A stretch of DNA of 64,000 nt, from NCBI GenBank assembly GCA_003693705.1, contig RBZT01000198.1:1-64000 (forward strand). The letters are read 5' to 3'. Both the position numbers and the translations under genes were made by a program. Each line of letters begins with the position of its first letter. Within the stretch, counting starts at the first letter, position 1. Source of the DNA: Polymyxa betae A26-41 (taxonomy: Eukaryota > Protista > Endomyxa: Phytomyxea). Shown in pieces: positions 1 to 61,860 of this stretch. The notes under the pieces were generated by a model that saw only the letters and a list, made by a program, of their open reading frames with translations, was not told the origin of the DNA and did not search any database.

Positions 1-455
1 CACGAATTACAGCTCGTTATCAACTCTGATTTATTCCAGCTCGAATCCCAGGACCCAAATCCAGCTCGGTCCGTACGGATGCCGTACGGTCCTCTCGGGG
101 GTCGAGCCTATTAATATTAAGGTACGTCGTCATACTTCCATCAGGTTCGCATCTTTGTTATGCATCAGACTTATGCGTCCGTCATCAGGAGCCATTGCGT
201 GCGCAGTTCGTCAAACTGCGTACGCTGTTTTTTGGGAATTCAGGATTTTATATTATTATTTTAATAAATCTGATACAGCTGCCTGTCAATGCATCGGTGA
301 CAGTTGCTCCATCCGGCAAGGATGTCAAGCCTGCCAACAATGACTACATCATTTCGTGTACTGAACTACAATCTCCGTATCGGCGGTCAACATCTCCTGG
401 CATTTCGAACCCAAAAACAGATCAGTCTTTCGGGACATGGTTTCGGGGCCCCTGA
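1..455 (+). other. Possible 3' part of an unknown spliced gene or degraded coding relic next to the Rep element
   Basis: Candidate GT-AG introns 122-168 and 220-278 would join an open frame (...GVEPINIK|TYASVIRSHCVRSSSNC|LPVNASVTVAPSGKDVKP...WFRGP*). No recognisable family, and other readings are possible. Confidence 0.2.
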
Positions 456-886
456 AGTCGTCAAGGAATGAACTTAATCTAAAACTGCGGGCTTTTACAA
501 AATTTTCAATATTACCATTCAATGAGCGGAAAAAAATTAACAATATACTGCAGTTTAATCTGAAGTCCGAATATTGTGCTGTGAGTGTGTGTCCGGATCT
601 GATATACGGATATAAATCTCACCGTCAGTGATGCTGCTGCCGTCTCTCCATTTGGCATGAGCGTGAAGCTATCAGCTGTCAGTTTTTGTGCTTTTGCAAG
701 GTCGTCTTTGCGGTTGCTCATGTGAAATTTGCATTCCGCAAGCATTTCTCCTTCCTCAGACGATCCGCAACACTCATCTTCCGAATCATCGAAATCCGAG
801 TCCAGGCGTCGTTTTCCTAAAACACTCACAGTAGAATCAACATCCGTGCTGCAAACCAAACATGACGATGTCGAAGGCGAATCCAT
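349..886 (-). CDS. Hypothetical ORF downstream of Rep (acidic tract, LGKRR NLS-like motif); 3' structure uncertain
   Basis: ATG at 886 (MDSPSTSSCLVC...VLGKRRLDSDFDDSEDECC). The frame is open to 512. A second frame (349-543, RGPETMSRKT...) could be joined by splicing or be a relic. Confidence 0.3.
379..565 (-). repeat. Left arm of a diverged inverted homology (partner 2964-3148)
   Basis: Reverse complement of 385-471 aligns ungapped to 3054-3140 at 63/87 nt (hand count). Similarity extends to CTTCAGATT at 557-565/2964-2972. Confidence 0.8.
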
Positions 887-1108
887 GTTAACAACAACGA
901 TCAAATTGAATAATGAACCAAAAACGGATCCGGTTACCACGACGTCAACATACTTACCTTGACGAAATACTCAAACATACCGCCATGCACAACAGCGACA
1001 CTTAACAACGTCATAGTGCATGGCACATCATATCTGCAGGGCACATCATGACGAAAACAGTCAACTTGGGAACATAACGAACACCAAAAATAGCATCCAC
1101 GAGGTGTA

Positions 1109-1234
1109 GTTAGGTAACCCTATTATCGACCAATATAGTTACCTAACACATCACCCCTGACTATACAGTTACCTAACTACTTATAAACAATATAGAGTTA
1201 CGTAACTACTTTCGACAATGTAGAGTTAGGTAAC
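1109..1234. repeat. Five palindromic GTTA(GG/CC/CG)TAAC units at 28-30 bp periodicity (iteron/origin-like minisatellite)
   Basis: Cores at 1109-1118 GTTAGGTAAC, 1138-1147 GTTACCTAAC, 1168-1177 GTTACCTAAC, 1197-1206 GTTACGTAAC and 1225-1234 GTTAGGTAAC. Confidence 0.9.
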
Positions 1235-1245
1235 TACAACTTTAT

Positions 1246-2610
1246 TTATTCCACATTAGACGGGGAATTCACACCCGAATCAACCGCAAGGGCCGCAAGA
1301 TCGCGAGCAGCAACGACGTCTTCGTCTATCGAAACTTGGGTAGAGGCCACATCCTCGATCGGACAAACACGAACAGGTACGTAACAACCGTCGTCGCCAA
1401 CAGTCAAACCCCAACCATCAACAACGGCCTTAATTTTAGCAGCCGCGCGCGACCGTACATCGTCGATACGACCGCATCGAACACAAGCACAAAACTGGGC
1501 GGTTCCAGCACACCGCTCTCGCAGATCGACTTCGGTAAATCGTCGATGGATCGGCAGACGTTGCCGGTCATCCGTATAGCATTCGTCGATAGAATAATTC
1601 GACGTCACAATCGTGTGACTCGGCCTGATCTTCCAATATTCCTGTTTAGGCTGTCCCATGAACGGATACACGTCCGCCCATTTCTTAATCCAGGATGACT
1701 TGATATCGCCGGGTTCGATCTCTTCCACGAACGTCACCGGCTCGTCATTGTAGCCACTCCACCATTTGTTAGAGTCCTTAAGAAAAACGTCGGTCGGGCG
1801 GAACGATTTCCAAACGAAATAACTTTTTCCAATATCGCCTGGACCCACAATCCAGACGTTACGATCGCGGGGATTACCGGGCAGGACCGGCAGCTGACGG
1901 CGGCCCATGAATTGCGTCCGATCAATCAGCAGCGCGTTCGCATGACGCATCCGCATCGAGGCGTCAATGGAATCCCAGTCACCGCGACGACAGGAGGCGA
2001 ACGCATCCTGAGCCAGAACCTTGAAGGGTGTCTTGTGGGCAGGGCGGGGGGGACGAACCCCCCGCTCCTCCCCGTCCCACGACGGATTAGCTCCCTCTTG
2101 GGACTGCTGTTCAGAGCCTTTGGTACAGTAGCAAAAGCAATTCCAACGAGAATGCTGATAGGTCGTCTTCTTGCCACACGGTAACACATTAGTGACGACG
2201 TCAAAGTGCGCATCGCCAATACCAAGCGCAGCCTTGACAGTACGACCACGCTTGCCGCCCGTCAGCTCCAGATAACATTGCAAATGCAGACCTTGCGTCT
2301 GCGTCACCTCACGCCCAAACACGACAAACGAAACCTATTACATTACTAAATTACTGCCTTCCTCAATGTTAACAACTTAAGACGTTACCCAATCGTTGTC
2401 GAACAGACTTAAAAACTTTGTAACACGTTCGACGTGGGAGCCCTCATCGTAATGTATAGTCACCAGCCAATACTTCGACTGTTTGTTGAGAACCGGAATA
2501 CCCTCCGGATTCAGAGCACCCGAGCCACGAGGGCGACCTGCACCGGGACGCCGACCACCTGCACCACGACGACCATCCTCTTCAGCATCCACATCAACAA
2601 ACGCCGACAT
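1246..2610 (-). CDS. rep: CRESS-DNA-virus-type replication initiator Rep (HUH endonuclease + SF3 helicase), 2 exons: 2610-2389, 2334-1246; 436 aa
   Basis: Motif I YWLVTIH, motif II LHLQC, motif III YCTK, Walker A GPGDIGKS, Walker B VEEI, motif C IVTSN, Arg finger IHRRF. A 54-nt GTAACG...TAATAG intron (2335-2388) holds the three in-frame stops. AATAAA overlaps the stop codon. Confidence 0.93.
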
Positions 2611-2963
2611 ATTATAAAAATAACATATTTTGATTACCTGTTCGCATTTTGATTATCTGTGAGGGGACCCCCATTCAGGAAATCAAAAGTGCGTGACAGG
2701 CACGAAGGGCCGCGCAGAGGCCACGCACCCGATTTCCACCAATCAATAGTATATCTGTTTGGTATAATTTTGGAGTCGTATTCGTTCGGGTTTTTTGTCC
2801 AGTGCTTGTTTGTCATACCCGAATGGGGGCCAATGCTCCGTTTCGCATCCGAAGCGATCCCATCTCGAAGCCTTGTGCTATGATACAGCACCGCCCGTTG
2901 AATCCAACAATTTAGTTGAATCGAATGGAATCCAATCCAATCCAGATCTATCAACAATAATCG

Positions 2964-3148
2964 CTTCAGATTCAAACTGTGGTTAATCGTTGATTCTTTG
3001 TTCATTGAATGGATATATTGCCGATCTGTGCGAGTTAAGGTTTCAAATGAAGTTTATGTCTCAATAATCTCAGGGGGCCCGAGGCCACTTCCCGAAAGAC
3101 TTATCTGATGTTGCGCTCTAATTGCGAGAAGTTGTTGACCGGGCCGAT
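2964..3148 (+). repeat. Right arm of the diverged inverted homology (degraded paralogous copy)
   Basis: Reads LNNLRGPEATSRKTYLMLRSNCEKLLT versus LDDFRGPETMSRKTDLFLGSKCQEMLT in the left arm. Its upstream part has a stop/frameshift in that frame. Confidence 0.8.
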
Positions 3149-3238
3149 TACTATAGCAACAAGGCAATTTAAAACGTCAAGCATTTAAGTTGTTCACTTT
3201 TGACAACGATGAACTTTATTATATTGTAGGCCGGTTTA

Positions 3239-6200
3239 TCATCCGTCAACTTCTAACAGCAATACTACACCGTTGAGAATCCATTTCGCAGGTGGCGCCT
3301 TTGTCCTTAAACCTGCTGCGAACACATATGTTGGTCCGCGTCGTTGTGTCTTGTACACCGGGCAGTTATATACACCCGTTTTTTCTTGCTTATCGGCAAG
3401 AATGGCACGACAGTTCATGACAGGTAATTCCATGAACATCTCTCTAGGCAGCGAATCTTCCAGGATACCCTGTTTTGTGTTCCAACGAGCGCCGACGATC
3501 TTCAGCCCTGATATGTAGGCGCCGTCACGAGCTGGACCATCGATTTGTTCAGCTTCATATCGAGTAACCTCCGTCTGAATCACGAGCTTGTCCAGTTCGA
3601 GATTGTTCCTTTGCGCTGTTGTCTGCATAATCGCCGTCAGGAACGATTGCGGATTAAAGAAGTATGGCAGCTGGACGACGAATGGCAGATTGGTAGGACT
3701 ATCGACCCATCTCTGTAGTTGAGCAATACGCAGAAGTAGATCCTCGGTCCAGGTTGCCAGATCTCGAAGGGATGGATATGCCACAGCGGCCTATAAAAAC
3801 ATTTAAAAAGCTAGATAACATTCAAGGTATAAGAATTACCCAAATTGTAGGAACCCGATTCAAGAAGAGAGACTGCTCAAGAGCTTCCATTCGGGCATTC
3901 CTGGTGAGAGCACCAGATAGACCCATGTCGAGCTCAGTAATTGATCGATTAATCTCATCAGTGAGGATATTCATACGAACACATTCTTGCATGAACACGT
4001 TCTGATATGGACCACGTTCCTCTTCGGTTAGAGCGGCGGAAATCTCCTCCATGTCGAAACGGATATCTCGGAACCTGTCTTGGAGCTGCTCCAGAACCTG
4101 CTCGATACGGGACTGGCTGCCTCGACCGCCATCTCCACCGCTTGCGCCTTTTGGTTGTAATTCCATTAAATTCGCAAATAAGTCACTAAAATTAGTGAGC
4201 ATGGTCGTCATAGCAGACTGCCGACGAACTTACTTTGATTCTTGAGTACGAACTCCAATTTCGGCATTCGGATGTAGACCGAACAGAACGGGACTTTCGA
4301 ATTGAAGTTCGCGATCAATATACGTGAAGTATTCGTCATATGGTAGTACAGGAGGTGCCCTGAAATGTTCCTCTCCTGTAGGTTCAACATATGGCAGCAG
4401 CTCCATCTCATCAAATAGCTCATCACGCATATAAAATTTAAGATACGTTGAGCAGAGCAAACGATCCCAATCGTCAGTGATGTGACCACCATACATGATC
4501 TCACCAAAGATATAACGAAGATCGTCCCATGGCACCTATCATAGACAACGTTTAGAATCTGGCAACGAGACGCGGACCTCCGTCTGAACCTTTTCGCCAG
4601 CTGATTCCAGATAGTTGGAGAGAACCGTTGCCGAATCCATCAAGTCGCCGGTGCTAAACGGGTATATGACGTTCCAACCTTTCGGGCCGAATTTTTTCCG
4701 CTCCAGAACGACTGAGTGGAAATGGCACAACCCGAAGATGATGCTCTTAATCTTCGGATCTTTGAATTCGAACTCATCCTTATCAAAGTTTGCAAACGCC
4801 CTACATCGCTACAGTTGAATATCTTTTCAAAAACAGATGTGATGAGGAGATATCGAACCGTTTTAGGTTGGATTTAAGACCTTGTGGTGGTTCATTGGTC
4901 AGTTTGATGGATCTTTCCAGGAGACCGATCGGGATCTTATCGTTAGGTTCGGCAGATAGGAACACGCGGAAGTCCTCGTGTGATTTCTGGATGGCGAAAT
5001 CATCGAGTTTCTTCTCGAGCTCCAACGTCCATTTCGGCATCAGATGGATATTCTCTAATATTACCCAATATCCTTCCTTATGTGCAGCTTCTAATCGAGC
5101 CATGGCGATAATATCCTGGCCTTGACCCATAGCAATCCTATGAACCTTATTGGCGAATCCCAACTTCTTGGCCAACGTCATGACAGTCGCTACAGGATCG
5201 GCACCGGCCGACAATATAAAGAATCTGCAAAAGTATTAGTGCAAGGAGCATATATCATGTAGTAAACTGACATTGGTGTGGTTGGGTTGCTATCGTTGAA
5301 TGAAGTCTCCAGAACATCAAAGAAAGAATTCTGGGCGTCCAGCTCGGTGTACGCCTTACCATTGGGCAGGGCGGTCGACACGAAATTGTTGATGGCAATG
5401 GTCATACGATCAGGACGCATGCACTTAACCACGAGCAGCTTCATGAATGGAGCCGATTCGTCCAGTTTACGCCAATCCAATGGGAGCGGTGTTGATTCCG
5501 GACGTGCCTTCAGGTACCAGTCTTTAAATCGGTTCGGTGAGGCGATCATGTCTTTAGCCAGGGCCTGGAACCCTTCCAGATCGATCAATGCTTGAATGGA
5601 CGCCCATGAACTTGATGATAAAAACGGGAGCGGGTTTTCAACTCCAATCTGTTCATGGCTATTAGCATTGAAGGCGAAACCCTAAGCCCCAAAAATCTTT
5701 GAAACCCGAACTTGAAAAATGTGGCAGATGTTATGAGGGTCCGTGATAAAGTAAAAGAAATGTGCGGGATAAAATGGAAACATGCGTGAGTGACAAAAAA
5801 CTGGAACCTTCTTGATGTCGCTAATTAAGAACTGGAAATGATCGCGATCGAAAGCGACGCTTAAGACGCCCCTCTCAGCCAAACGGAAGACGAGTTGCGA
5901 CGAGAAAATTAATTTGTGCTTCTCGAAGAGACCGCGGCAAACCCAGGTGAAGATAATGATGCGGATCTTCTCGGTGAGGTTCTTGACCCGATCCTTGGTA
6001 TTATCAGCTTTGGTCGATCGATCGATAGCCTTGTAGAAGAACCCAACGAATGCATCTAAAGAAAACCGATACATATGGTCGATTAATTGCAAGGAATTGA
6101 TGAGGAAGTAGATCCAGGACGCCTCAGCCGCCACCATTCGAAATTCGTTTCTCGTCTTATTGATGGCGATTTCCTGCTCCTTGGCGGCATCGACCTTCTT

Positions 6201-40177: not shown

Positions 40178-42718
40178 TCAGGAAGCAGTCGGGGAAGCAG
40201 TCGGCGGCTGTGACATGATCAAAGCGATGTGATAGCCGCAGACGATATCATGGACCCGACCACAAACGACCGGGTCTAGTTCGAGAATTGTCGGTGAATC
40301 GAGGACCTGCTTGCCGTTCAGGGATCCGGCTATCAGGACATCAGCAGTTCGAGTTAGGGCCATTGTGGCCGTTTTAGCGCATGCAATTCTGACGACACCA
40401 CAATTAGCGAATGCCGGCACTAGAACAGGAGACATCGACATCTTGACAGCTGCTTGGATACCAAGCTGTCCATTGGCATTGCATCCCCAAGCATAGATCT
40501 GCCCAGACTTTGTACGAGCTACAACATGACGTCCGCCGGGGACCAAATCCATGATTTCCGATGGTATTGGAACGGCGGTCAGTTCGCTGCGATCTTGACA
40601 ATCTCCCAGGCCGAGACGTCCATGCCGTCCTGTTCCACATGCAAATACCTGTCCGGAATTGGTCACGACATAGCTGTGTAATAAAATATCAGAAATCAGA
40701 TGATTGCTAACGGGGAGATTATCCTGCCTGGATTCTGTTGAGCATGCCACTAACTGTACAGCAGCTGGCAATGGTGTCGTGATCAAAGTCGGAGTGAAAT
40801 GATGACCGGTCTGATCCCGTCCAAGCCATGGACCTTCTCCGCCCCATGACCAGATCTCATTTTCTAAAGAGACCACGAATGTGTGCTTAGCAGCAGATGC
40901 TACAGATCTGACTCTAATGTGTGCGAGAGCTGGGATCGGCGTCGTAGACGTCACGGTTTTAACCGCGCCTTTCATACCGAGCAGAGAGCATCGACCCCAC
41001 CCGTATAGCTGAAGGGATGGCGAGCTGCTCACAGCCAGGTGATGATCACGGCCGCACGATAACGCTGAAAAATTGACGCCATCGGGACGAGGAATGGTGA
41101 CGGGACCGGCGGCGACGCCATCTTCATTGAACGACCATTGTAGAATGGAACCGTCAATGGTGATTGCGGACGCTTCGGCACATCTCGCTGCTAGATGAAT
41201 GATATTTGCTGTCGATGTCAATTGACGTAACATGCCGTCCTTCTCAATCGATAAGACCTGGCAAGGGACCAAAGGGTCATTAACGGCAACGAAGGCCTTG
41301 GCAATCGCCGCCATTGCATTTGGTTTCGTAACTTTCTCGAAGAGAACAGCTGTTTTTTTAGATACATCGTCGTATTGCTTATTTGTATCAGTATGTTGGT
41401 TGAATTGTTTTCGGTTAGGCGGCGACTCCGGGCCATTGCTTGAGGCACGTTTGATTGAAGTCGCAGAAACCAGCGAGCGTGCGTCTGCGTATGATGAGCG
41501 AATCGATTTCATTTGAACCGAAACCGGAGCAACAAACGATGGCGACCGCAGCGGCTCAGGCTCAGGCTCAATTTCGATTTTCTTGCTGAGACTATTTCGT
41601 TTTTGTAACGTGGGTACCGAGACAACAATTGAACGACGTTGATTAGTCATCTCGTCCTTCCTGCTGAAATTCTCTCGTTTCTGTAAACTTGTCGTTGCCA
41701 TCAGTGACGGGCTCTGAAACGCTTCCGATTTTGCATCGCCTTTATCGAAACTGTCTCGTTTCGTGGCAACATGCAGCGACCGGTGACTTTGGTTCTGGAA
41801 CGTTTCAGGTTTGTTATCGTTCTTGTTGAAATTATCATGTTTTGGTAGATTTGATGATGATATTACTGCAGCATTTTGGCTCGATTTCGTCTCCAATCTC
41901 TCTTCTTTTTTGTTGAAATTTTCCCATTTTGCTGCAGACAGAAGCGACCGGCGTTGTCTCTGGCCGACCTCCTTCTCATCCTTTCTGCTGACATCATCAA
42001 GCTGCGAAGAGTTCACAGATGCGACATTCGGCGAATGTTGAGATTGAGGCAAGAATGCCGGCGGCGTCATTGCCACCAGTCCACGACTCTGCACAACCGA
42101 AGAGCGGCCCATAGGCGTCTTCCGAATTGTCATAGCGCGGTTAAACGCCACGACCCATTCCTGTCGCTCTCGTTCGCTTTTCATCTCCAGCAAATACTCC
42201 TGTTCTGCGCCTTTTAACAACGTCAATGTGATTCCGGTCTTCCTGGTCAAGATGATTTTTGTATGGGCGAGATTGATGAGCAGAATCGGGGTCGACCCTT
42301 GAGCAAAAATGATATGGGCGTTGCCCAAGAGTATTAACGTCACCGTCTTGCCATTTAAATCGGCCTGACCCAATCGAAGAAATTTGCAGTTCGGAGCGAT
42401 TGGTCTACTTGCAATTAGGGCATCAAGCAAGACACAAATCTGATCGGAGTCGTCGGAATTCGCCGTCTGGACATCGACCGGGATCTGGGCGCGCCGATAG
42501 ATGGTGAATTGTGTCTCTGGATTGCGGACATCAAACTGGAAGCAGATAATATAGGAGGCGCTGATTGACAGCAACAGGCCATCCATTGTGAAGAGCTCAA
42601 CGGATTGGTTCTGAGCATTGACACGAAGGATTCCATTCAGTAATTCGTTCGTGGTAGGATGCCGAAACGACGCCGCGAAGCAGTGCACGGCCTGAACATG
42701 GGCCTCGTCGACATCCAT
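40178..42718 (-). CDS. Protein with N-terminal PH-like domain(s), disordered linker and C-terminal RCC1 repeats
   Basis: PH C-terminal helix ERQEWVVAF; RCC1 repeats SCGRDHHLA, VFACGTGRHGRLGLG, IYAWGCNANGQLG; probable 54-nt GC-AG intron 40674-40727. Confidence 0.8.
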   Translation of the reverse strand: MDVDEAHVQAVHCFAASFRHPTTNELLNGILRVNAQNQSVELFTMDGLLLSISASYIICFQFDVRNPETQFTIYRRAQIPVDVQTANSDDSDQICVLLDALIASRPIAPNCKFLRLGQADLNGKTVTLILLGNAHIIFAQGSTPILLINLAHTKIILTRKTGITLTLLKGAEQEYLLEMKSERERQEWVVAFNRAMTIRKTPMGRSSVVQSRGLVAMTPPAFLPQSQHSPNVASVNSSQLDDVSRKDEKEVGQRQRRSLLSAAKWENFNKKEERLETKSSQNAAVISSSNLPKHDNFNKNDNKPETFQNQSHRSLHVATKRDSFDKGDAKSEAFQSPSLMATTSLQKRENFSRKDEMTNQRRSIVVSVPTLQKRNSLSKKIEIEPEPEPLRSPSFVAPVSVQMKSIRSSYADARSLVSATSIKRASSNGPESPPNRKQFNQHTDTNKQYDDVSKKTAVLFEKVTKPNAMAAIAKAFVAVNDPLVPCQVLSIEKDGMLRQLTSTANIIHLAARCAEASAITIDGSILQWSFNEDGVAAGPVTIPRPDGVNFSALSCGRDHHLAVSSSPSLQLYGWGRCSLLGMKGAVKTVTSTTPIPALAHIRVRSVASAAKHTFVVSLENEIWSWGGEGPWLGRDQTGHHFTPTLITTPLPAAVQLVACSTESRQDNLPVSNHLISDILLHSYVVTNSGQVFACGTGRHGRLGLGDCQDRSELTAVPIPSEIMDLVPGGRHVVARTKSGQIYAWGCNANGQLGIQAAVKMSMSPVLVPAFANCGVVRIACAKTATMALTRTADVLIAGSLNGKQVLDSPTILELDPVVCGRVHDIVCGYHIALIMSQPPTASPTAS

Positions 42719-59668: not shown

Positions 59669-60219
59669 GGGCTCGGTTTTTGGTCTAAAACCGGTTTTCA
59701 CGCAAAAACGACACGTTTGGCTACCAAAGATCTGGTTTTTCATCTTGGAAACCGGTTTTACGAAAAATATTTTTGTATTTTTTTTGTTATTACCGTAGCT
59801 ACCGCCGATGTCTATGAAAACTGAGGCAGGCAAGATCTATCGCGCTGTCTGGGACACTGACCGGGGCGCCCATCTAGGGGGGATTTCTCCAACAGCAGCA
59901 GGAATACTTGTCCGCTCATCCGAAGTTTTTCGAAGATTTCTAACAATATTACCCTTTTGCAATTCAAGCACCCACTGCCGTCCTTGCAGTGATGAAGTTC
60001 GGCAAGGATCCTTGCAGCAGTAGGTTTCAGCATACCACTCGCCAACCATACACGCCACAAGACTTTTTCGTTTTTCAAAAATTTCATATTCGTCGTCACC
60101 CGAAGAGCTCATGGTTGCGTTTGGTGCGGCAAACCGGGTTAGAACGGAACCGGTTTTGATAGCGGGCAAAACCATTAGGAAAAACCGGTTTTTTATTTGC
60201 GTGGCTTCCAAACGAGCCC
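59669..60219. mobile_element. Non-autonomous (internally deleted) PIF/Harbinger DNA transposon, 551 bp
   Basis: TAA target-site duplication (59666-59668, 60220-60222); TIRs GGGCTCGGTTTTTGG / CCAAACGAGCCC; subterminal AAACCGGTTTT-type palindromes; transposase N-terminus KDPCRTSSLQGRQWVLELQKG on the minus strand. Confidence 0.85.
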
Positions 60220-60514
60220 TAAGCGTAACAAGCCAGGATCAGGATGTTCTGCGAAAGAGAGTTTGTGAGTCGTCGCCTGCTGTCGTGCTCTGATCACTCT
60301 AGTCAGAATATCCCTGATGCGCAGCAGTCCATCTACTTCTTTGGGGAGCTGTCGAACTTCTCTCCACATGTTTCATACAATTACAGATTCATAAACTACA
60401 TGAAAATCCCAAACGATTACGGTAATATTATGATATTGGAAATCTTGCTGGAAAACAAAATCGAAAAATTTGTATCATGCTTGGTTTCACGAGGAAAGAC
60501 TTTTCAATTGCGAT

Positions 60515-61027
60515 TCAGAACCACCTGCTTTTTAACCCTAACATATACAGTACGATTGACGCAGCCGTCTTTAGATGGTACGAGCTCAAAACGACGGCGA
60601 AACAGGGTTTCAGCGACTCAATCATCGGGCCGGCGACAATGGCGGTGAAGTGAGTGTGGTACCGTACCGTAGTCCGATAGAGCACACCATCTGGGGATGC
60701 ACCAACGGCAGCGGCAGCGCGTTTCACGATCTGTTCCCATAAGGTGGGAGGACGGATTACAATGGCATAGTCGCCCGCTTCCACTGCTACGTACCCATAC
60801 ATGGCGCTGATCCTGCCGTTCCTGAAACGGGTTGGGACCCTGAGCGTTCCCCTCGCGTAATCAGGGTGGAAGATCTCGTCCTTCCAGAGCTTCCACGAGG
60901 GCATTATCACCATGCGGAGATTACCTTCGACAAAGCAGGAGCAGCACTTGCGCCTGAAGATACCTTCCTTGCTCATAATCAGCCTGTTCAGCGCCTCGTG
61001 GTAGGTGTGGACGCTTCTGAGCGTGTT
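60515..61027 (-). pseudogene. Fragment of a divergent RNA polymerase beta'/Rpb1-like (DPBB) gene, truncated before NADFDGD
   Basis: LNRLIMSKEGIFRR...V...RMVIMP...LWKDEIFHP...TLRVP...GDYAIVIRPPTL matches the KEGRFR...RVDFS-RTVI-P...DEV-VP...TL-VP...GD-V-FNRQPTLH pattern. In-frame TAG at 61028-61030. Confidence 0.6.
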
Positions 61028-61335
61028 CTAGCCCAGGAAGGGGCTGTGTGCACTCGAAGAACTTTTCTCTAGCTTATTGGAAGCGTCGAGGCCGTTTCGC
61101 CCGGGATTCTTGGTGGTTATCGGATTCAGTTGTGGCAGATGGCCTTCGTCGACGGTGGTGCGATTTTTGTGGGTTAATTGGCCGACCAATGTGGCGGCTT
61201 CTGCCAATGGTGTCAGGGTCATTTCTAGGACGAGTTCTTTCCACCAATTGGTCTGCGAGTGGAGGAGATTCTACACGTTCGTTGCCAATTGCTTGCCAAT
61301 TGAACATAGGCACTGACTCCATAAACGCTGCAATG

Positions 61336-61860
61336 TGTCATGTTATTGTACAGTACAAGTCAGCGCAACCATATTTGTTCACGTCTGGCCGATATTGTGT
61401 AACTTTACTGGTCGGAGGCCAATATGGGGCTGTATAGATCAGGTTAGTTCATGACCAGTATCCCCTTTGATAGCGGTCCCGGCTTGTGTGAATACTGTCG
61501 GTGAAATTGTTCGATGTGTTGGAGTAGCCATAATTGGCAGGGATCCAGAATCTAGATGCTTTTAGCGGGTTCTCACGTGTGTTCTTTTCCTGTGTACCTA
61601 GTCAAGCCAGTGCACGAGGTATTGTAGTTTCCGCGGTACATTCTCGAATCAACGATGTGGCTCTCTTCAAAATCACGAAGCGGACTTGTGTGCCGTTGGG
61701 ATCGTATTGGGCGCATAGGTTGCTAGAAGGGATAGGGATACGTGGAATACAGAGTGATGCACGAATCTGCTGGTATCTCCAGTTCGTAACTCCCCGGGTT
61801 GATAATGCGTTTCACAAAGAAGGGGCCTAATCCTGGCATTTGTCAGGCCTTGTCGTGGTA
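61336..61860 (-). mobile_element. Degraded 3' end of a Ty3/gypsy chromovirus: integrase GPF module, chromodomain, PPT, short 3' LTR (61336-61457)
   Basis: LGPFFVKRIINPGSYELEIP..HSVFHVS; FEESHIVDSRMYRG..YLVHW with stops/frameshifts; AAAGGGGATAC polypurine tract then TGGTCATG...CATGACA termini. Confidence 0.75.

Follow-up and report, generated by a model that had tools for sequence, protein, structure and literature searches.

CRESS-type Reps nick single-stranded DNA with the tyrosine of motif III, form rings and unwind DNA with their SF3 domain, and small DNA is copied with them in the nucleus by the rolling-circle mode and the host polymerase. Endogenous Reps of this type are known from many protists and from fungi (Liu et al. 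2011, PMC3198968), and for Polymyxa betae a draupnirvirus-like rep of 168 nt (41484-41651) with a putative cap has been reported (Kinsella et al. 2023, PMC10193959). Also known is a Rep-bearing TIR element in a fungus, the geminivirus-like transposon of Tuber melanosporum, with 42 copies of more than 95% identity, an interrupted Rep, two transposase ORFs and 37-bp TIRs (PMC3198968). Spliced Reps were predicted for 36 cruciviruses, for which SAR hosts were proposed (de la Higuera 2020, PMC7468197), and introns are described in the Reps of gemini/genomoviruses and circoviruses (Zhao 2019, 10.1101/687855); the word "intron" is absent from the main text of Liu et al. (PMC3198968). Among eukaryotic HUH elements, Replitrons are defined by a Y1 HUQ Rep, no helicase and short direct terminal repeats, and Helitrons by a Y2 Rep with an SF1B helicase (Craig 2023, PMC10288648). 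Of the CRESS replicons of SAR protists, HthCRESSV1 is described as mitochondrial, of Repensiviricetes type and without a jelly-roll capsid (bioRxiv 10.64898/2026.04.22.720165), and the Oomyviridae as having linear genomes that encode one (PMC12451638).

The locus described here lies near the left end of the window, by which we mean the whole 64,000-nt stretch of DNA that was analyzed. The window carries an axonemal-type dynein heavy chain gene, short introns and a GC content of about 45%, indicating a flagellated protist, perhaps a plasmodiophorid. For an adenosine kinase used to place the host, the nearest homologues are 85-67% identical, and those from named organisms reach 64% at most. As in the endogenous Reps of protists and fungi, an HUH+SF3 Rep is found in host DNA, several copies occur per genome and no capsid is seen, which is the usual case in the accounts of PMC3198968 and PMC10193959. 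Where the published P. betae entry covers 168 nt (PMC10193959), we find a whole gene with a predicted intron, set in a cassette with two small units. Like the Tuber element as described in PMC3198968, the locus has a Rep of CRESS type within a repeated element of a eukaryote whose ends are inverted; it differs in having about three copies that are 82-86% identical, an intact Rep, no transposase and 200-nt arms at 70% identity. HthCRESSV1 and the Oomyviridae are set apart from the window Rep by their published descriptions. A literature search, with subscription journals mostly outside its coverage, found no prior report of this Rep family, and host terms gave no match in PMC9615429. The close clade of the Rep and its cassette appear to be undescribed. 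They link a deeply branching CRESS Rep clade that has no name to a flagellated protist as its host; the hosts of most CRESS lineages are not known.

The features of the locus, in window coordinates, are as follows.

1-277, no strand, end of a high-copy host repeat (left flank, probably outside the element)
379-577, minus, left arm, i.e. the 3' part of the left unit and inverted paralogue of the right arm
512-886, minus, ORF2 (left unit), 124 aa, acidic with a basic patch
855-960, minus, ORF2 start and upstream region, almost identical in a diverged sister copy
1109-1234, no strand, array of five quasi-palindromic 10-mers with 28-30-nt spacing and two hairpins
1120-1172, minus, 53-nt GT-AG intron inside the array, spliced joint in run X7 (one contig, depth 3.3)
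1240-1249, minus, two overlapping AATAAA signals at the Rep stop
1246-2334, minus, Rep exon 2, 362 aa, with HUQ motif II, motif III Tyr, helical middle domain, SF3 helicase and C-terminal Cys cluster
2335-2388, minus, predicted Rep intron, 54 nt, GT-AG, between motifs I and II
2389-2610, minus, Rep exon 1, 74 aa, with a basic GAGRP stretch and RCR motif I
2627-2688, no strand, two 15-nt direct repeats and a hairpin just 5' of the Rep ATG
2753-3148, plus, right unit, a transcript with a spliced 46-nt intron (3028-3073; joint 3027-3074 in run X4, GT..AG)
2954-3148, right arm, within the right unit
3239-3790, minus, last exon of the host dynein heavy chain gene (right flank; introns spliced in runs X3 and X7)

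The Rep gene is read on the minus strand from the ATG at 2610 to the stop codon at 1248-1246, and removal of the predicted intron 2388-2335 gives 74 + 362 = 436 aa. A script listing donor-acceptor pairs found 24 GT/GC-AG pairs that give an ORF of more than 380 aa, the 54-nt pair being the shortest. The protein resulting from this pair matches P0154, an uninterrupted environmental protein of 470 aa with 63% identity to exon 1 and 44% to exon 2; at the level of sequence, P0154 independently confirms the predicted exon 1, to which a second environmental protein, P0156, is 56% identical. The predicted intron has a GC content of 31% versus 54% for the exons, and its size is within that of the dynein introns seen spliced (48-58 nt, runs X3 and X7). 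Its position between motifs I and II would be an addition for HUQ-type Reps. In P0156, 24 residues are inserted a few codons upstream of the intron position in the window, possibly a read-through intron at a different site. The HUH motifs are located at aa 47 (motif I, in exon 1), 91 (HLQ) and 143 (YCTK), and the SF3 motifs at aa 238 (Walker A), 277 (Walker B), 317 (motif C) and 338 (Arg finger). The first-pass annotation had proposed the same frame with one GT-AG intron, all seven of these motifs, a poly(A) signal overlapping the stop, a repeat array and an accessory ORF, and each of these was recovered. Its statement that the Rep block directly abuts the dynein gene was wrong, as 628 nt lie between them and hold the separately spliced right unit on the plus strand.

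Pfam searches gave only a weak SF3 match for exon 2 and, for P0154, matches to Viral_Rep (E 1e-5) and RNA_helicase. In the structure model of exon 2 (pLDDT 89.5), the predicted helicase part matches the ATPase domain of the PCV2 Rep (E 4e-8), and the best viral structure matches of the model are all CRESS Reps, unclassified ones included, at 16-29% identity. The P0154 model is poor overall (pLDDT 41) and was used for its nuclease part alone, which as modeled matches circovirus and nanovirus Rep nucleases. An HUH nuclease, here of the HUQ type, fused to an SF3 helicase is the Rep architecture of the Cressdnaviricota, and judged by sequence the Rep unit would work like a cressdnavirus replication module. 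Replitrons and Helitrons are likewise HUH-driven eukaryotic elements, and Replitrons share the Y1/HUQ nuclease type (PMC10288648). The window Rep, however, is a Y1 protein with SF3: its single motif III Tyr and SF3 helicase separate it from Helitrons (Y2, SF1B), and the fused helicase separates it from Replitrons.

Relatives of the Rep are distant and mostly environmental. In a search of 1.84 billion representatives, 3 out of 3,349 matches passed E 1e-30. A FastTree phylogeny of 210 rows was built from exon 2 only, leaving out proteins below 250 aa, ten near-duplicates and locus ORFs below 200 aa or above E 1e-15. It placed the window Rep in a close clade with P0001, P0154, P0156, P0161 and L071 (SH support 99, stem 0.70). 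The next branch has a support of 89 and the deeper ones 12-53. The phylogeny suggested by the first-pass annotation thus yielded a long-stemmed clade with five environmental rows and no supported sister among the 210 rows. The tree holds no family reference set, and a family-level name stands on one row only (P0012, Crucivirus-520). Cruciviruses and unclassified Arfiviricetes-type Reps resemble the window Rep in HUQ motif II and in the helicase word pattern, and for cruciviruses both splicing of the Rep and SAR hosts have been suggested (PMC7468197). The identity to these Reps is, however, about 31%, Crucivirus-520 is not grouped with the window Rep in the tree, and no tombus-like capsid lies near the window Rep. 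In contrast to crucivirus Reps, the close clade has a C-terminal CxCxxC cluster, which was found in 9 of 167 proteins, namely all of the clade plus P0010, and which we guess to be a zinc site. P0010 and P0029, both outside the close clade, are Reps with Cys/His-rich C-terminal extensions.

The environmental relatives sit on contigs of 1.3-6.3 kb, with P0001, P0156 and P0161 encoded on contigs of 4.1-6.3 kb. Circularity was seen for 63 of 75 relative loci, and many of the loci have Arg-rich ORFs that resemble capsid genes (judged by eye in the 16 shown). Four scans of viral contigs contained no close-clade member, one of them giving 11 pattern matches and no relative, and metagenome contigs gave five loci, one of them close to the window Rep. 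Close-clade DNA was found neither among 22 prokaryote genome stretches nor in plasmids and phages. L071 is the only close relative with DNA. It is not circular, and it has an AATAAA 7 nt past the Rep stop, one exact array unit 215 nt past that stop and after Rep only two ORFs, of 110-114 aa. A conserved array in L071 was considered and rejected: two sites lie within two mismatches, and 79 of 2,000 shuffles and 5 of 63 other loci have as many. By eye, L071 838-943 looks like an intron (donor, branch-point word, acceptor) that contains array-like words; its removal would connect a short exon with an ORF of 110 codons that appears helical.

Sequence words of 300-3400 occur in fifteen sequencing runs of eight studies, and contigs of seven runs were aligned to the window. 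A 34,056-nt contig of run X1, which may be the source of the window, runs from 1368 across Rep into dynein, and so does a 20,752-nt contig of run X2 from another study, with the same start. Over 3,633 nt they differ from the window at 0 and 3 positions, respectively, with no gaps. On the left side, a single X2 contig covers 249-1396, and run X12 of a further study has 892-1214 unchanged. The X2 differences inside Rep, at 1765 and 1879, are both at third positions (frame read by hand). This Rep copy is common to runs of five studies, nearly unchanged and intact.

On the left side, the 10-mer GTTASSTAAC occurs five times in the 64 kb, always at 1109-1234, versus 0.08 expected. The array folds with z-scores of -4.1/-4.3 and is a candidate non-canonical origin or regulatory array. 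A Cys/His-rich frame of 61 codons (934-1119, minus) starts exactly at the acceptor of the spliced intron 1120-1172; its end is close to a strong donor (about 957), and no in-frame start lies upstream. Between the array and ORF2 lie a hairpin (978-1030, z -3.3) and two 15-nt direct repeats (1017-1049). ORF2 gave no match in a protein family search and is too short for a jelly-roll capsid; its region is covered by low-depth contigs in runs X3, X4, X7 and X8. The sister of 855-960 is a contig in X3/X4 with one substitution and one insertion and with loose ends on both sides.

On the right side, the hairpin at 2627-2688 is weak (z -2.4, with 6 of 200 shuffles equally good), and this stretch is a candidate Rep-binding or promoter site. 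The right unit has no long ORF after splicing. Its transcript overlaps the dynein 3' end head to head on one X4 contig (2753-3330, depth 59), so the unit is transcribed antisense to the host 3' end. Diverged homologues of the left and right units were seen as loose ends in X3, X4 and X7 (at 855, 960, 2882, 2905, 2944, 3070 and 3129); by eye, the peptides encoded by such ends of sister copies look similar. A tblastx comparison of both units with the 75 relative loci gave nothing under E 0.08, and Rfam gave no match.

The flanking arms noted in the first-pass annotation are real as an inverted similarity (379-577 versus 3148-2954, 70% identity over 206 columns, E 1e-15), with ends that are not fixed. 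Paralogous coding exons are not supported as an explanation by the differences, which are 10/12/5 by codon position with a synonymous excess in no frame. Against viral or transposon terminal repeats speaks the 70% identity beside an intact Rep. By their sequence, the arms are diverged inverted paralogues of about 200 nt and candidate termini at most.

No capsid-like gene was found in the 64-kb window, none of the 144 non-Rep ORFs of the relatives matched, and the neighbors of Rep are at most 124 aa long. A nonanucleotide stem-loop was likewise absent from 279-3240, where four published patterns gave 20 matches with a best stem of 4 bp; an origin stem of 7 bp or more is present in 44 of 70 relatives. 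Among the joints listed for the aligned contigs, none closes a circle. As for a transposable element, the seven runs showed neither young, near-identical copies nor an empty site. Because capsid, origin and young copies were all looked for with negative outcomes, we do not file the cassette under any virus family or transposon group.

The DNA runs that contain the window Rep also contain at least two further Rep copies, 82-86% identical to it. In X1, the sister pieces differ from the window at 26 of 144 positions (1510-1653), 70 of 434 (1904-2337), 21 of 128 (2417-2544) and 12 of 84 (2132-2215), with no gaps. The second and third of these lie on one 680-nt contig, where 82 unaligned letters replace 2338-2416, the intron region; the last overlaps the 1904-2337 piece and thus represents a third copy. 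The depths of the sister pieces (152-219 in X1, where the host contig has 204, and 12-14 in X2, versus 14.5) keep a steady ratio in two studies. Depth is not itself a copy number, but this ratio would fit one chromosomal copy per sister Rep, and for these short contigs the chromosomal context is deduced from depth alone. Third positions make up 11 of the 14 listed sites (of 26 differences) and 30 of the 36 listed sites (of 70), and among the listed sites 39 of 46 changed codons are synonymous and none is a stop. A near-identical second Rep copy is absent from the seven runs, since Rep is unbroken in the 34-kb single-depth contig. A stretch of 30 nt in the Rep coding sequence (1368-1397), which includes a partial array unit, is identical among the diverged copies, a possible DNA-level constraint.

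A Rep-less sibling was also found, as a 2,276-nt contig in X1 (depth 181) and with the same joint in X2 (depth 13). Its letters 994-1054 match 682-748, followed by 2837 onward; the left match is weak (61 letters, 6 mismatches, 6 gaps). At most 1,222 letters lie in between, compared to 2,088 in the window, so there is too little room for a Rep gene of 1,365 nt plus flanking sequence. The 748-2837 joint was considered as an allele or empty site and rejected, as it belongs to a diverged sibling, and a true empty site for the cassette was not seen in the seven runs.

The first-pass annotation had left a choice between a recently endogenised virus and an HUH-SF3 element. That choice stands: the gene is not single-copy, which counts toward an element family, and neither capsid nor canonical origin is near, while young copies and an empty site are missing. 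With a probability of roughly 0.5, we favor the view that the Rep stems from an undescribed lineage of cressdnaviruses with this protist as host, and that this lineage was endogenised repeatedly. Strains related to each other, which had already diverged by 14-18% and undergone selection during their circulation, would have entered the chromosome separately, via Rep-mediated strand transfer or repair. The two small outward-facing units may be accessory genes of the virus. Its capsid gene may not have been included in the piece that integrated, which the repeat at 1-277 now cuts, or may have been carried by a second component; the Rep-less 2.3-kb sibling is a candidate for such a component. Separate endogenisations are favored because they best explain the low copy number, the deep synonymous divergence and the intact frames, and the lack of a near-identical copy is expected from separate integrations rather than from a burst. 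The CRESS-type architecture and predicted fold, the circular relatives, a Rep GC3 above that of dynein (0.56 vs 0.48), the relatives on short contigs and the published precedent all count for this view. Against it count the lack of a capsid-like match and of a nonanucleotide stem-loop, the non-circular L071 and the absence of the close clade from the four viral-contig scans, and inverted paralogous units on both sides of Rep are unusual in a small circular virus. The intact copy across five studies and the third-position changes in X2 fit ongoing selection in the host as well.

We regard it as possible, though on present evidence doubtful, that the cassette is a capsid-less HUH-SF3 mobile element derived from a cressdnavirus, either a rolling-circle transposon or an integrating nuclear plasmid. 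In this scheme, Rep would introduce its nick in the palindromic array or at the ends of the cassette, and the single-stranded circle that it peels off would be inserted at another site; left unit, Rep and right unit would form the autonomous element, and the Rep-less sibling with the 748-2837 joint (X1, X2) a non-autonomous derivative. Lack of both a capsid and a canonical origin, together with the sibling, is explained better this way than by a virus. Further points in its favor are the diverged homologues of both flanking units, the array folding at z about -4, and the at least three Rep copies, one of which has an intron-sized stretch at the same site and whose mostly synonymous differences suggest purifying selection. 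It is weakened by the lack of young copies and of an empty site, by only about three Rep copies, by undefined ends with arms only 70% identical, and by the weak left match of the sibling and the shortness of the sister contigs. Put more broadly, and a shade more tentatively, the locus could represent a third kind of HUH element in eukaryotes. Such an HUH-SF3 cassette would lack a capsid, contain an intron and two accessory units, and carry a palindromic array where a virus has its origin; selection would maintain it in the nucleus of a protist, both autonomous and Rep-less members would exist, and other protists would harbor relatives. If true, it would add to Helitrons and Replitrons the HUH+SF3 class that is missing among rolling-circle elements, and provide a living intermediate between virus and transposon (or nuclear plasmid). 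The route from virus to transposon would then be directly testable, because one genome contains the intact enzyme together with its sister copies and the Rep-less sibling.

It is unlikely that a viral Rep was integrated once and then kept and duplicated by the host, for example to defend itself against related viruses through a dominant-negative or nicking action. The intact Rep in five studies, the third-position nature of both X2 differences and the host-sized intron would agree with such a role, and expressed endogenous Reps are reported in PMC3198968. Low-depth pieces of Rep and its sisters (in X4) also occur in the RNA-like runs X3, X4 and X8, but at a depth of about 3-7 these may be DNA carry-over. 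Moreover, none of the catalytic motifs has been lost, the cassette is still of viral type, and close homologues lie on short environmental contigs. An assembly error, or fusion of host DNA with that of a contaminating virus, which the first-pass annotation had named as a refuting case, is very improbable because contigs of two studies join Rep to dynein without gaps and one X2 contig covers 249-1396, even though this evidence comes from contigs and not from long reads.

Two further observations concern the surroundings of the cassette. The repeat at 1-277 has a summed depth of 19,000-46,000 versus 204 for the host in X1, i.e. 100-200 times the host depth, with many loose ends behind 277. It ends in CA, and its last 34 nt are common to several subfamilies with different inner sequence; as a side reading, it would be an LTR end or the terminal repeat of a DNA element. 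Near the right end of the window, a cluster of ORFs with higher GC and without an obvious host match (59837-61437) is possibly another mobile element.
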